Positions 3,798-29,852 of a stretch of DNA of 64,000 nucleotides are shown here, piece after piece. Position 1 is the stretch's first letter. Each line of letters begins with the position of its first letter. Below the pieces are notes generated by a model. That model was not told the DNA's origin. It did not search any database and was given only the letters and a program-made list of their open reading frames with translations. The stretch spans positions 2,495 through 66,494 of the forward strand of contig JBGSKX010000006.1 in the NCBI GenBank assembly GCA_041741015.1, in the 5' to 3' direction. The position numbers and the translations under genes are program-made. This DNA is from Pirellulales bacterium (GTDB lineage Bacteria > Planctomycetota > Planctomycetia > Pirellulales > PALSA-1355).

Positions 3798-4544
3798 ATG
3801 AAAACTGCATTTCGATCGCTTCTGGGCGCCTTGGCCTTGTGTGTTGGCGCATCTCAGCTTCATGCCGCAACGTACGTCATCGACCAGACGCAAAGCTCGA
3901 TTACGATCACCGGGTCGGCACTCGGAATTATTCCAATCGTACAACAGTCCCCCGGATCGAATGTCGCGGTCATCGCGGGCTCGATCGATGCCACTGCAGG
4001 CGGCGGCTTCCTGACCTTCACCGGTGGCGTTGCTGATGCCGTTGAGAAACCCGGACCCTATCTTCCAGGCCCGATTAGTGGTGACCCTCCGGTTGCCGGC
4101 CCGGCCGCTCCGGCCGATGTGGCACTCTATTTGGGCAACGCCTCGACTGGACGTCTGGCACTACGGGATTTTGCGGTGTCCCTATCGGGATCCGCTCCCT
4201 TGGCCGGAAATGATTTCGATTTGACTGCCCTGACGCTCACGGTCACCTCAGGTGCATTGGACTACCAGGTCAGCTTGCTCGCCCTGGTCGGTCACGAGGA
4301 AATCGCCGGACAGACTGCTAATCCTACCGAGGGGACAGGACTGCTGGTCGGCGGGACGCTGACCATTCCGATCAATGTCAGCATCGCATTTGAAGTCACG
4401 GACGGCGATCCACCGGGCATGGCGGTAGTCAACCTGGTTGGCCAAATCGTCGCCACGATTCCTGAACCCGGCACGATCGCCATGCTCGGCCTCGGTGCAG
4501 TCGGCTTGATCGCAGTCGGCCGCCGCCGCCTCCGCCGGGCTTAG
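3798..4544 (+). CDS. PEP-CTERM sorting-domain secreted protein (paralog of 2460..3227)
   Basis: Signal peptide MKTAFRSLLGALALCVGASQLHA and C-terminus IPEPGTIAMLGLGAVGLIAVGRRRLRRA. It shares YV(V/I)D..QSSITITG, QSPGSN and GDPPV(V/A)GP blocks with the upstream gene. AAGGGAGA precedes the ATG at 3798; the track ORF start at 3687 is probably an over-extension. Confidence 0.8.
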   Translation: MKTAFRSLLGALALCVGASQLHAATYVIDQTQSSITITGSALGIIPIVQQSPGSNVAVIAGSIDATAGGGFLTFTGGVADAVEKPGPYLPGPISGDPPVAGPAAPADVALYLGNASTGRLALRDFAVSLSGSAPLAGNDFDLTALTLTVTSGALDYQVSLLALVGHEEIAGQTANPTEGTGLLVGGTLTIPINVSIAFEVTDGDPPGMAVVNLVGQIVATIPEPGTIAMLGLGAVGLIAVGRRRLRRA

Positions 4545-4610
4545 TGGCTTAGCATCTACAAATGCCACCTGAACGTGGCTGCCGTGCGAAGTTGTCGATG
4601 TGCTCATGCA

Positions 4611-4650: not shown

Positions 4651-4808
4651 GATGGATTCGTCCGTTCGTCCTCCGGAGGTCGTAGGCTAATCTTTTGAGA
4701 ACCCAGAACGGCATTTTGGCGCGACGCCTCTGCGCTGTCATGGATATTGGTTTCCTGTAGGGCGGCATCCCGTTGCGAAATGTTTCTCGATCTCCAAGGA
4801 GTTTGGCG

Positions 4809-25594: not shown

Positions 25595-27358
25595 TCAGTT
25601 CGCGGCTTCGGGATCTTCGACACGCACGATTTGAGCATCGAATAATTCAGTCGCTCGGCGAACCATGGCGTGCTCTTTCAGTTCGGCCACGCGTTGCCTT
25701 TGCGGAGCCGCGCGGCGTACCTGGGCCGCAGCCTGATGGGGTTCGTCCGCAATCGTAGCAAACTCAAGCTTTACACGGCCGCCCGCGACGCTTGAAAGTG
25801 CCTGTTCAATCTCGGCTACCTGCCGCTCGCAGAACGCTCTGCAGGCAGTATACTTCGCGCGAAATGTAGCGACCAGCCGATTGCCGCCAGGCGCGCTTGC
25901 GCTTTCACAGAAGTCTGCGTTCTGATGCAACAGCCCTTCGAGGCTGGCGAGCGCGGCATCCCAGATGCGTTTAGCATTCCCACTCGTCACTTCGGCCGGC
26001 GGTAGCGATGCGGAGGTTAATGATTGCGGCGTCGCTGGCTCGCTGTCCGCTGACTCTGATTGGGGTGAGACTGGCTCATGTTTTTTTTTTGCTGCCAGAT
26101 CGGACACCGCGGGGACATTGCTAGGAGTAGCGCTCGGCCTGATCGGCCCAGTTGATACAGGCAGGCCGCCGGTTTGCAGTCCCTGGATCAACTCCGAAAG
26201 GTCGTCGAGGTTCTCAAGACTCGCGATCCGCACCAGGGCCATTTCGACCAGGGTGCGCGACTGCGTACTGTAGCGCATCCGCGAGAGGGTGTGATCGATG
26301 ATCTGCATGATCGCCAAGACGGATTCCAGTCCGGCGCCTCTCCCCGCTTCCGCAAGGTACGCGTGTTGTGCAGGAGCGGTATGCAGCAGTGCCTCGGCCG
26401 GGCAGCCGACGGCAGAGACCATAACGTCGCGAAAGTAGCCCAGGAGTTGTTCAAGCAGTTGGCCGACGTCAACGCCTTCACTGGCGGCGGAATCCAGATC
26501 GGCGATGGCCGCCGCGGCATCCCGCCCGAGCAGGTGATCGACCAGCGTGGTCAAGCGAGCTTCACCAGCCGTGCCCAAGAGCGCATGGACGTCGGCCGCC
26601 GTGATTCGCGCCCCACCGATCGCCAGAATCTGCTCCAAGAGCGACTGGCTGTCGCGCATCGAACCGGCCGCCCGGCGGGCCAGAATGGTAAGTGCCTCGG
26701 GCTCCGCCTCAACACGCTCGGCCGAGACGATCTGCGAGAGTCGCTCGACGATCGAGGCGATGTGAATCCCCGCGAAGTCGAACCGCTGGCAGCGCGAGAG
26801 GATCGTGATCGGAATCTTCGATGCTTCGGTCGTGCAGAAGATGAATTTCACATGCTCAGGCGGTTCCTCGAGCGTCTTGAGCAAGGCGTTGAAAGCCTCA
26901 CGCGTGAGCATGTGGACTTCGTCGATAATGTAAATCTTGAACCGTGCCCGGCTCGGCCGGACATTCACGTTCTGGCGGAGCGAGCGAATTTCGTCAATGC
27001 CGCGGTTGCTGGCACCGTCAATCTCGATGACGTCGACGTCGGCGCCGGCCGTGATGTCACGGCAGATCTCGCACTCGTTGCAAGGTGTGGCCGTGGGGCC
27101 GTGAACGCAATTCAGCGACTTGGCGAGAATCCGGGCGGACGAGGTTTTACCAACACCACGAGCACCGGTGAACAGGTAGGCGTGACCGACTCGACCGGCG
27201 GCGATGGCGCCTGTCAGCGCTCGGGCGACGTGATCTTGCCCGATTAGCTCGTCAAACGACTGGGGCCGATAGCGGCGGGCAACGACCACGTACTCGCCGG
27301 AACGGGGAGCGTCACCGGCTGAGTTATCGATCGGAGGTTTTCCAGCCGGAGCGGCCAT
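25595..27358 (-). CDS. dnaX: DNA polymerase III subunits tau/gamma (DnaX)
   Basis: YRPQSFDELIGQDHV, GARGVGKTS (Walker A), the zinc module CNECEICRDI, IIDEVHML and TRCQRF. Start chosen at the ATG at 27358 (MAAPAGKPP...). The track extension to 27511 runs into the SRP RNA. Confidence 0.9.
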   Translation of the reverse strand: MAAPAGKPPIDNSAGDAPRSGEYVVVARRYRPQSFDELIGQDHVARALTGAIAAGRVGHAYLFTGARGVGKTSSARILAKSLNCVHGPTATPCNECEICRDITAGADVDVIEIDGASNRGIDEIRSLRQNVNVRPSRARFKIYIIDEVHMLTREAFNALLKTLEEPPEHVKFIFCTTEASKIPITILSRCQRFDFAGIHIASIVERLSQIVSAERVEAEPEALTILARRAAGSMRDSQSLLEQILAIGGARITAADVHALLGTAGEARLTTLVDHLLGRDAAAAIADLDSAASEGVDVGQLLEQLLGYFRDVMVSAVGCPAEALLHTAPAQHAYLAEAGRGAGLESVLAIMQIIDHTLSRMRYSTQSRTLVEMALVRIASLENLDDLSELIQGLQTGGLPVSTGPIRPSATPSNVPAVSDLAAKKKHEPVSPQSESADSEPATPQSLTSASLPPAEVTSGNAKRIWDAALASLEGLLHQNADFCESASAPGGNRLVATFRAKYTACRAFCERQVAEIEQALSSVAGGRVKLEFATIADEPHQAAAQVRRAAPQRQRVAELKEHAMVRRATELFDAQIVRVEDPEAAN

Positions 27359-27411: not shown

Positions 27412-27552
27412 AGGCCCGCGGTAGCGACCTCGGATGAGAGACCCATCGCACAAAGAGATGACTGCTTATGGCTGCTGACTTTCGTCCCTGACCAGGTTCG
27501 CAGGTCCCCATTGCGAGGGCCTCTCATCGGAGGCCGCCAGGCCGCGAGGAGG
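27412..27552 (-). ncRNA. ffs: Signal recognition particle RNA (small bacterial 4.5S type); ends approximate
   Basis: The minus strand reads CCUGGUCAGGGACGAAAGUCAGCAGCCAUAAGCAG. This matches the remembered E. coli 4.5S domain IV, CCAGGUCAGGUCCGGAAGGAAGCAGCCAAGGCAG, with a GNRA tetraloop and the AGCAGCC loop. The flanks pair into one long hairpin (CCUCCGAUGAGAG with CUCUCAUCCGAGG, CGCA with UGCG, CUGC with GCAG). It lies directly upstream of dnaX on the same strand, as in the Bacillus scr-dnaX-yaaK-recR arrangement. Confidence 0.78.
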
Positions 27553-27839: not shown

Positions 27840-29852
27840 ATGAGAGTCGCTAGATTCTGGAAGTGGACCGCCGTGGTCTTCATGACGGTGCTGCTGGCGC
27901 TGCCTGAGAGCACAGCCTGGGCTCAACGAGGGGGCGGCAGCCGAGGCGGCGGAAGTGGTGGTCGCAACAGTGGTGGCGGTGGCGGCGGAGCACGCTCGAT
28001 GGGCGGTGGGGGCGGCGGAAGTCGCAGTTTCTCGTCACGCGGCGGCGGTCCGTCGGTGTCTCGTAGCGGCAGCGGTTCGTCGATGTCACGCGGCTCGGCG
28101 CCGAGCATGCGTGGTTTTTCTTCCTCGAATCTCGGTGGCCGATCGGGTGGTTCACCCTCTAGTTCGCGCAGCTTCTCCGCTCCGAGTCGAAGTTCTACGC
28201 CCAGCGTGCGGAGTTTTTCCGGTTCCGGCGGTCGCTCGTCGATGAGCGAGAGCCGTAATCCCAGTTCGATCTCACGCTCGCCCAGCATGCGCGATTTCTC
28301 GGCTGGTAATCTCGGACGGTCGATTGACCGCGGCAGTGCTGGGCGTTTGGCTTCGCCGGGCGGCGGGCGAAGTTCGTCGGGGAATCCAACGGTGCGATCT
28401 GGCGGCTCGCCGGAATCTCGAAACTTCGCCGATCGTAACTTCTCATCGAGGAGCAATCTGACGCAAAGCGGCGGGCCGCAGCGCAACGCCAACCAGCGGT
28501 TCGAGGCCAACCGCCAGAATCTCGGGAACATCAGCCGAGGACCATCACGCGGCAACACCGTAGGGGCGGCTACTCCCGGTCGCACGGACGGAAATCGGTC
28601 CGATTTTGTCGCTCGCAACTTCGGCTCGACAAGAAACCCGATCCGCGTAGGCGATGGAAATGGACGGCCAGGTTCACCGGGCGATGACTTTCGCCGTGGC
28701 GATGGCAATCGCGGTGATTGGACTCGAGGCGATGGTAATCGGGGAGACTGGAATCGGGGCGAGTGGGCCCGCGGCGACGGCAATCGCGATGGAAATCGTG
28801 GAGGCGACTGGAATCGCAATAACAACTGGAACCGTGGCGATTGGGGCCGTAACGACTGGAATCGCGGCGACTGGGGAAAGAACAACTGGGGTCGCACCGA
28901 TTGGAACCGCCACGGTTGGAATCGGTGGGGCAACAGCTGGAACCACGGCTGGAATAATAATTGGAATAACAACTGGTGGGGAGGTAATCGTGGCTGGTGG
29001 GGCTACGGACGAAATGTCTGGTGGACCCCTGGCTGGAATAACTGGGCCTGGGGTTGGGGGTGGCCACTCATCGGTTGGAACAATTGGGGATTGGGTTGGG
29101 GGCTCGGCTGGGGCTTAAGTAACGTCGGTTGGGGCGGTTACGGTTACCCCACGTATTACGACACTACCTACGTTTATCCCACAACGACGCTCTACGCGGA
29201 CGCGACCGACGTGATTGTTCCCCAAGCACAGCAACCGGCGCTCGACCCGCTGGCAACCACGGGCGACTTCGTGTCCGATGGCGAAGCGGCGTTTCGCGCC
29301 GGTCGCTATCAAGACGCGCTTCGGTTGTGGCAACACTCGATGGTCGACGATCCGGACAATGGCGCGGTTGTGCTGCTGATGGCTCAGGCCCTGTTCGCGC
29401 TCGGCCAATATCAGTCGGCTGCAAACGCGACCCAAATGGGCATGCAAATGCTGCCGGAAACCGAGTGGGGCAATGTTGTTCGTAATTACACCCAGCTCTA
29501 CGGCAACATCGAGGATTACACCAACCAGGTGCGGGCAGCGGAGAAAGCTCGCGACACGCGAGCGGACGACGGGGCAGCGCGGTTCCTGCTCGGTTTTCAC
29601 TTCGGGTACTTGAACTATCCGAAGCAAGCCGTGCGTGAGCTGGATGCGGCGCTGGTGATCGAACCTCGCGATGTGGGGGCGGAAAAACTTCGCGACATCT
29701 TCGCCGCTCAAGCGGGGATGCCCGCCCGACCGCACACCGCGCAGCCCGCCGATGGACAACCGGCTGGTGGTGCTCCGGCTCCCGGCTCGCCAAGGCTTGG
29801 CCCAGATCAGAAGCCCGTCACGCCGCCGGCCCCGGTGGGTACGGATGCCTAA
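27840..29852 (+). CDS. Secreted low-complexity protein: signal peptide, Ser/Gly/Arg-rich repeats, Trp/Asn/Gly-rich repeats, TPR-like C-terminal domain
   Basis: Signal peptide MRVARFWKWTAVVFMTVLLALPESTAWA. It is the longest ORF at this locus (670 aa). The C-terminal part (GEAAFRAGRYQDALRLW ... ALFALGQYQSAANA) looks like TPR helices. The 349 aa antisense ORF reads as a mirror of the repeats. Confidence 0.75.
   Translation: MRVARFWKWTAVVFMTVLLALPESTAWAQRGGGSRGGGSGGRNSGGGGGGARSMGGGGGGSRSFSSRGGGPSVSRSGSGSSMSRGSAPSMRGFSSSNLGGRSGGSPSSSRSFSAPSRSSTPSVRSFSGSGGRSSMSESRNPSSISRSPSMRDFSAGNLGRSIDRGSAGRLASPGGGRSSSGNPTVRSGGSPESRNFADRNFSSRSNLTQSGGPQRNANQRFEANRQNLGNISRGPSRGNTVGAATPGRTDGNRSDFVARNFGSTRNPIRVGDGNGRPGSPGDDFRRGDGNRGDWTRGDGNRGDWNRGEWARGDGNRDGNRGGDWNRNNNWNRGDWGRNDWNRGDWGKNNWGRTDWNRHGWNRWGNSWNHGWNNNWNNNWWGGNRGWWGYGRNVWWTPGWNNWAWGWGWPLIGWNNWGLGWGLGWGLSNVGWGGYGYPTYYDTTYVYPTTTLYADATDVIVPQAQQPALDPLATTGDFVSDGEAAFRAGRYQDALRLWQHSMVDDPDNGAVVLLMAQALFALGQYQSAANATQMGMQMLPETEWGNVVRNYTQLYGNIEDYTNQVRAAEKARDTRADDGAARFLLGFHFGYLNYPKQAVRELDAALVIEPRDVGAEKLRDIFAAQAGMPARPHTAQPADGQPAGGAPAPGSPRLGPDQKPVTPPAPVGTDA
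28680..29180 (+). repeat. In-frame degenerate short repeats encoding the RGDGN / GDWNR / WNN / GWG tracts
   Basis: Reiterated ggcgatggcaatcg, gactggaatcg and ggctgg units. The translation is RGDGNRGDWTRGDGNRGDWNRGEW...NWNRGDWGRNDWNRGDWGKNNWGRTDWNRHGWNRWGNSWNHGWNNNWNNNWWGG...GWGWPLIGWNNWGLGWGLGWGL. Confidence 0.8.

Follow-up and report, generated by a model that had tools for sequence, protein, structure and literature searches.

The closest described counterpart of the gene considered here is dnaX of Thermus thermophilus, in which slippage on a run of nine A (A9) has been shown experimentally (Larsen et al., 2000; Yurieva et al., 1997; both as cited in PMC1088944 and PMC5009743). According to the outline of this system given in PMC5009743, stop codons lie near the Thermus run in both non-zero frames, and the site appears as GAG-A9-GCCTGA in Fig. 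S3 of Antonov et al. (PMC3711429). Escherichia coli dnaX employs a different device, a -1 ribosomal frameshift at the heptamer A_AAA_AAG assisted by an upstream Shine-Dalgarno-like (SD-like) element and a downstream stem-loop (PMC5009743). Here we describe an uninterrupted run of ten A (A10) on the sense strand of dnaX, coding for the tau subunit of DNA polymerase III, in a Pirellulales bacterium of the phylum Planctomycetota. The gene is located within a 64,000 nt stretch (contig JBGSKX010000006.1 of assembly GCA_041741015.1, positions 2,495 to 66,494), referred to below as the window. On comparative grounds, RNA polymerase probably slips (realigns) at this run in a programmed manner, as in Thermus.

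A third arrangement is the dnaX gene split into two open reading frames (ORFs) at an A10 run, found in Chlorobi, Bacteroidetes and Coraliomargarita and attributed to predicted transcriptional realignment (Antonov et al., 2013, PMC3711429). In the two-ORF form the zero frame encodes gamma and tau synthesis needs a slip, whereas in the window gene the zero frame encodes tau. The screen which revealed the two-ORF genes included only two Planctomycetes genomes (Antonov et al., 2013, PMC3711429); as it detects frame transitions, single-ORF cases would not be expected to be flagged. Truncating slippage was also excluded by Baranov et al. (2005) as hard to assess comparatively (PMC1088944). No published description of a planctomycete dnaX recoding site was found in a full-text literature search.

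The A10 run and the predicted short products

The minus strand of the window reads GCA GCA AAA AAA AAA CAT GAG at 26092..26076. The run begins at nucleotide 1269 of dnaX, the third base of codon 423, and thus covers the end of Ala423 (GCA) and three AAA codons for Lys424-426. Re-reading of the sequence agreed in every detail with the sequence-only reading, which had first pointed to ten T on the plus strand at this place and to the corresponding A10 in the dnaX frame (the coordinates of this and other features are collected in Table 1). No other homopolymer in the window (60.7% GC) reaches this length, the next longest being a T8. Dinucleotide-preserving shuffles give an expectation of 0.04 A10 runs per window, and the observed run exceeds chance.

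The proposed mechanism starts with RNA polymerase transcribing the T10 template, where the nascent A-tract would realign to produce a mixture of mRNAs with A10, A11, A12, A9 and so on. Messages with ten A (or 10 +/- 3n) would be translated into full-length tau of 587 aa (+/- n Lys). Those with one extra A or two missing would stop at TGA after a single Thr codon, while those with two extra A or one missing would be read for about 21 further residues up to TAA. Simulated mRNAs give a 427 aa product with the tail AAKKKT for +1A, 426 aa for -2A, 446 aa with an approximately 21-residue tail for -1A, and 447 aa with the tail NMSQSHPNQSQRTASQRRRNH for +2A; the predicted 446/447 aa species carry the NMSQSHPNQSQR... 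tail. The simulation reproduces two earlier predictions for this gene: a 427 aa product ending in KKKT upon gain of one A or a -1 slip, and an extension of roughly 22 codons to TAA upon loss of one A, the latter corresponding to the 446 aa product.

In DnaX of the window, the AAA+ clamp-loader domains I-III precede a C-terminal extension of the tau type. Pfam places DNA_pol3_delta2 (PF13177) at residues 41-197, the ATPase lid (PF22608) at 203-249 and domain III (PF12169) at 252-393. The NCBIfam gamma/tau equivalog NF004046 covers residues 23-577 and scores above its threshold (477 bits against a cut-off of 400), as does TIGR02397 (448.8 bits against 250), and the gamma/tau profiles align end to end with the 587-codon ORF. 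In an AlphaFold2 model covering residues 304-587, the part after domain III is predicted to be a disordered linker, with the A10 run in its middle, about 30 residues past domain III. The linker is followed by a predicted compact fold and a terminal helix. Foldseek matches the C-terminal domain weakly to that of E. coli tau (5fkv_E, E=9.8e-3; 2aya, E=5.7e-2) and also to other small alpha/beta domains, and no PDB sequence matched the last 161 aa when these were searched. The modelled domain is therefore consistent with tau domain V, though these matches are not decisive.

All predicted slipped products would keep domains I-III and lose the C-terminal domain, that is, they would be gamma-like. 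This agrees with the expectation of the sequence-only reading that the short form retains the clamp-loader core and drops the tau-specific part, as domain III ends at residue 393 and the C-terminal fold begins at about 453. Such products could take a place in the clamp loader but would not be expected to tether the polymerase.

Conservation of the run and of the off-frame stops

The protein product was compared with its 120 best DnaX homologues (57-100% identity), the named ones belonging to Pirellulales, Planctomycetia or Planctomycetota. An exact KKK is present at about position 400-495 in 113 of them, within linker flanks that are hypervariable and cannot be aligned. The two residues after KKK are very often x-Glu or x-Asp, as the codon pair NNT-GAN encodes. 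The persistence of KKK could reflect a constraint at the protein level only, with a lysine patch in the linker serving as a binding, cleavage or processing signal and the A-run being incidental. Formation of gamma by proteolysis is indeed known in Caulobacter (PMC5009743; bioRxiv 10.1101/2022.11.10.516041). In Caulobacter crescentus, too, one tau ORF yields a shortened, gamma-like DnaX, but this arises post-translationally, by partial ClpXP proteolysis and without a nucleotide-level signal.

For the nucleotide level, 80 metagenomic dnaX loci were collected with an alignment query restricted to domain III through the C-terminus (31-81% identity to the query segment, 51-65% GC). An uninterrupted run of eight to ten A occupies the homologous linker site in 68 of the 80 loci (A9 in 38, A10 in 27 and A8 in three), so that A9 and A10 account for 65 of the 68, and no run is shorter than A8. 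All three codon phases are represented, and the run is translated into varied peptides such as AKKK, KKK, xKKN, EKKT, QKKI and KKV. Lysine codons at the site are 171 AAA to 12 AAG, against 187 AAA to 337 AAG elsewhere in the same regions, and each of the 12 AAG is the final codon of an A9 run. Where a tenth A is present, it is the third position of the preceding codon, although only 15% of the third positions in these genes are A. Runs of nine or more A in the fetched loci are essentially confined to this site and to the sense strand.

The four nearest relatives, L162 (97% protein identity), L163 (88%), L081 and L076 (82%), all have A10. Their runs are followed by GCT GAG, GCT GAC, GAT GAA or GAT GAG: the codon next to the run differs from that of the window gene, and the T-GA that forms the TGA of the -1 frame is kept.

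Taken together, the three phases, the varied peptides, the bias to AAA and the third-position A indicate that the constraint acts on the nucleotides, i.e., on the homopolymer, and not on the Lys-Lys-Lys peptide. A purely protein-level constraint predicts none of these codon-level features: the homopolymer persists where the peptide has changed to KKN, KKT, KKI or KKV, AAA prevails over AAG although AAG is favoured elsewhere, the run reaches into the preceding codon and off-frame stops cluster just after it. We consider this explanation very improbable, and unlike in Caulobacter, the codon evidence points to a mechanism at the nucleic acid level.

Even less probable is a neutral or mutational hotspot, or phase variation at the DNA level in which replication slippage would toggle between tau and gamma-only states. 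Homopolymers are hypermutable, and in L161, a relative with A11, the C-terminal part of tau is out of frame. However, a neutral A10 would not be expected to last at one site across loci of 31-81% identity in genomes of 51-65% GC, and tau is in frame in about 70 of 71 loci. Since tau is essential, heritable OFF switching would be lethal unless corrected in transcription or translation. The earlier opinion that such a run is unlikely to be neutral is thus upheld both by the low expectation per window and by the retention of the run at one site across relatives.

Stop codons in the shifted frames are positioned far closer to the run than to other positions in the same genes, which served as the background. 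The -1 frame, read by +1A mRNAs or by ribosomes shifted by -1, reaches a stop at a median of 1.7 codons past the run (background 32), and within 10 codons at 100% of the 67 scorable sites (background 20%). The +1 frame, read by -1A or +2A mRNAs, is closed at a median of 4.7 codons (background 25), and within 10 codons in 78% of cases (background 26%). In 51 of the 68 loci, stops lie within 10 codons in both frames. That the sequences downstream of the run are so varied shows repeated maintenance of this arrangement.

In some loci a single sequence closes both frames; for example, GAG ATA GCT AGT after the run gives TAG in both of them. Five loci (L136, L143, L144, L146 and L152) have the motif cgaGATAGCTAGt or its variants in the 12 nt after the run, likewise giving TAG in both shifted frames. 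The Ile codon ATA is expected to be rare in genomes this GC-rich, and its use in the motif suggests direct selection for off-frame stops.

Conservation of the A-run and of an out-of-frame stop in relatives had been named beforehand as the test of recoding at this site. Both are found, with runs in 68 of 80 loci and -1 stops at all 67 scorable sites, and the interpretation of the run as a putative tau/gamma recoding site is supported by this combination across relatives.

Transcriptional slippage versus ribosomal frameshifting

How the short product would arise had been left open between a -1 shift of the ribosome and slippage of the polymerase. In a programmed -1 ribosomal frameshift, ribosomes with Lys-tRNAs on A_AAA_AAA would slip back by one base on an mRNA of uniform length, read ACA (Thr) and meet UGA, giving a gamma of 427 aa. 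The requirements for this are partly in place: A10 of the window gene contains the heptamer A_AAA_AAA, of the X_XXY_YYZ form and in the correct phase, and the -1 frame stop follows at once (ACA TGA). The -1 stop is also the more tightly kept of the two (100% within 10 codons, median 1.7), and 12 relatives close the run with A_AAA_AAG, the E. coli heptamer. Moreover, the dnaX heptamer without stimulators was reported to support about 14-16% frameshifting in vitro (bioRxiv 10.1101/2025.10.02.679949).

Several features are at odds with a ribosomal shift. Seven A would suffice for the heptamer, yet 65 of the 68 relatives hold at least nine, the rare third-position A of the codon before among them; nor does a ribosomal shift account for the excess of +1 frame stops. 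Shifting in E. coli is poor on A_AAA_AAA relative to A_AAA_AAG (PMC5009743). The stimulators of the E. coli type were looked for and not found: there is no SD-like motif within 18 nt upstream of the run in the window or in 62 of 69 clade sites, and no Rfam release 15 match at E <= 1 at the site. The 81 nt after the run in the window fold at -12.5 kcal/mol, with z = +0.48 against shuffles, and the 80 nt before it have z = +1.69, so neither a downstream stem-loop nor an upstream structure is indicated there. For the 69 clade sites, z averages +0.16 after the run and -0.21 before it, with downstream values below -2 in only 3% of them. Altogether, we regard ribosomal frameshifting as an unlikely, though not negligible, source of the short product.

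Transcriptional slippage is favoured over a ribosomal shift because at least nine A are kept, the rare third-position A is retained and +1 stops are enriched, and also because the E. coli-type stimulators are absent and the anatomy of the site resembles that of Thermus. In many bacterial genomes, selection against coding-region A/T runs sets in at nine nucleotides (PMC1088944), and E. coli ribosomes are far less shift-prone on A_AAA_AAA than on A_AAA_AAG (PMC5009743). The sequences show the anatomy of the site and its conservation; that slippage occurs, at whatever rate, and that a short product is made and used is inferred from them. Of the two mechanisms left open before, slippage thus comes out ahead, and a ribosomal signal like that of E. 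coli did not appear.

Some points weigh against this interpretation. An A-rich stretch is missing from the linker in 12 of the 80 relatives (L098, L113-L115, L123, L128, L130, L132, L138, L149, L153 and L155), so the device seems to be dispensable in some lineages. The 80 loci are phylogenetically related, and p-values therefore overstate their independence; upon collapsing to 57 contexts (flank identity below 60%), the fractions of stops within 10 codons are 100% for the -1 frame and 75% for the +1 frame, and the conclusion is unchanged. In the window gene the -1 TGA comes after one codon and the +1 TAA after about 21; the +1 stop of this gene and its nearest relatives lies some 21-26 codons off, near the background median, while in most relatives it is much nearer. 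The argument from both frames consequently rests on the wider clade. Finally, any A9-A10 run would also hold a valid A_AAA_AAA/G ribosomal heptamer, and the main short product, ending in KKKT, would be the same under slippage and ribosomal frameshifting.

Comparison with the described systems is in keeping with slippage. Like Thermus, the window gene has one zero-frame tau ORF reading through an uninterrupted sense-strand A-run (A9 in Thermus, A10 here and A9 or A10 in relatives), alternative-frame stops close by (clade-wide here) and a predicted short product without the tau C-terminus; the Thermus GAG-A9-GCCTGA nearly matches one clade member, L118 (A9-gcctgag). The likeness to Thermus proposed by the sequence-only reading thus holds for the single tau ORF, the length of the run and, in the clade, the nearby stops. 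The window gene differs from Thermus in belonging to Planctomycetota and not to Deinococcus-Thermus, in having A10 in phase 2, in the position of the site (about 72% through the gene, just after domain III), in the distance to the +1 frame stop, and in that the Thermus mechanism is experimental while ours is deduced by comparison of sequences. The likeness to E. coli that had also been suggested is limited to the outcome, a gamma of about 430 aa ending one codon past the shift at a -1 UGA, with the site likewise located after domain III. The signal is unlike that of E. coli: the heptamer is A_AAA_AAA inside A10, the extra A and the +1 stops are conserved, and no SD-like element or stem-loop was found. 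The planctomycete site can be considered a further, comparatively well-supported example of the known Thermus-type device and not a new type of system.

Genomic context, distribution and significance

The frame of the C-terminal domain in relatives was judged by the length of the zero-frame ORF and by tblastn. The zero frame runs 444-734 nt beyond the run. Judged by ORF length, one locus with A8 (L157) seemed to be out of frame, which was not borne out by tblastn. L161 (GCA_037189345.1, JBBCKJ010084758.1; 77% identity) has A11 at 1518-1528; its zero frame closes after a gamma-like ORF of 433 aa, with the C-terminal part of tau read in a different frame. It is the only relative resembling the two-ORF form, and may be either a natural two-ORF variant of the kind described by Antonov et al. 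or a mistake in assembling the homopolymer, on a contig of 3.3 kb. A separate irregularity was seen in L076 (3001-4761 of CAWBCP010000004.1), an 82%-identical metagenome-assembled genome (MAG), where dnaX is detected as five tblastn pieces in differing frames with A10 intact; the breaks look like assembly indel errors.

A broad scan of genome contigs with the whole protein serves as a survey only, being dominated by the universal AAA+ motif YIIDEVHM and consisting mostly of distant phyla. It detected A9-A11 runs at about codons 354-422 from the match start. Carriers among Planctomycetota include Pirellulales MAGs (71% GC), Aporhodopirellula aestuarii, Planctomicrobium, Gemmata sp., and Phycisphaerae and Sedimentisphaerales MAGs. 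Outside the phylum the run was found in a Desulfobacteraceae MAG, Ignavibacteriota, a Fibrobacteria MAG (A11), Bacteroidota and a Leptospira-labelled MAG; in the same scan, no run was found in a Scalindua MAG, a Thermoguttaceae MAG (L002) or L001. Trichlorobacter, Nitrospirales and a deltaproteobacterium have an A10 near the 3' end of dnaX instead of the linker after domain III, at about codons 512-568 of 550-613 (L020, ~1820-1829; L055, ~4704-4713; L046, ~4536-4545).

The window gene is preceded directly by ffs, the signal recognition particle (SRP) RNA gene, in the order ffs-dnaX-ybaB-recR-rpoN with every gene on the minus strand. The longest mechanical ORF of dnaX, 638 aa extending to 27511, overlaps the SRP RNA gene and is therefore too long; together with an identical 587-aa protein in public data (P0001), this sets the dnaX start at 27358 and confirms the 587-codon model used from the beginning. 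A plus-strand ORF across the run (25965..26273) was taken as a spurious antisense ORF within dnaX. The plus-strand T10 was also considered as the T-tract of an antisense terminator and rejected, as no terminator-like site was found. On the other side of ffs, a divergent 670-aa ORF occupies 27840-29852 of the plus strand; it has a Gly/Ser/Arg-rich region, Asn/Trp/Gly-rich repeats (NWNRGDW-like) and a C-terminal part resembling a helical repeat. There are no tRNA genes within the 64-kb window, hence none for tRNA-Lys, whose repertoire has a bearing on how readily ribosomes shift.

Table 1. Positions of the A10 run, the shifted-frame stops and related features in the window
Feature	Position	Strand	Remarks
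dnaX (DNA polymerase III tau, zero frame)	25595..27358	-	587 codons and stop; Pfam, NCBIfam
A10 homopolymer (T10 on the plus strand)	26081..26090	-	dnaX sense strand; proposed slippage site
TGA, -1 frame	26075..26077	-	T of His427 (CAT) and GA of Glu428 (GAG); after one Thr codon
TAA, +1 frame	26017..26019	-	ends -1A and +2A readings after a tail of ~21 residues
Predicted disordered linker	26006..26170	-	about residues 397-451; AlphaFold2 predicted local distance difference test (pLDDT) <50; A-run in the middle
Tau-specific C-terminal part	25598..26005	-	predicted fold ~453-538 (pLDDT ~90), terminal helix 564-578
SRP RNA gene (ffs)	27430..27528	-	Rfam RF00169, 64.7 bits, E = 1.9e-13; directly 5' of dnaX

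The spread of such runs invites a wider, tentative idea. Coraliomargarita belongs to the Planctomycetes-Verrucomicrobia-Chlamydiae (PVC) group, as do Planctomycetota. A-run slippage might possibly be the ancestral and dominant route to gamma in Planctomycetota, and perhaps in much of the PVC and Fibrobacteres-Chlorobi-Bacteroidetes (FCB) groups and in other phyla, being efficient enough for A10 forms (tau in frame) and A11 forms (gamma in frame, as in L161) to interconvert by single-base changes; we find this conceivable but rather doubtful. The proposed slippage is accessible to experiment, since runs of this kind also occur in two cultured relatives, Aporhodopirellula aestuarii (L004) and Gemmata sp. 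IIL30 (L008).

There are practical consequences as well. Gene callers give only tau for the window gene, and homopolymer errors or real A11 variants lead to a split gene, as in L161 and L076. The statistics of off-frame stops may offer a purely comparative means to recognise truncating slippage sites, the class set aside by Baranov et al. (2005; PMC1088944).

The purpose of gamma beside tau is a matter of debate, and was called unclear in recent work on Caulobacter (bioRxiv 10.1101/2022.11.10.516041). A nucleotide-level device for gamma, kept across a GC-rich phylum against its codon bias, would be an independent line of evolutionary evidence for selection of the short form. If slippage were indeed as widespread as in the tentative idea above, selection for the short clamp-loader form would extend well past the few model organisms studied, and RNA polymerase, not the ribosome, would determine the tau:gamma ratio, which might then respond to nucleotide pools or transcription conditions.

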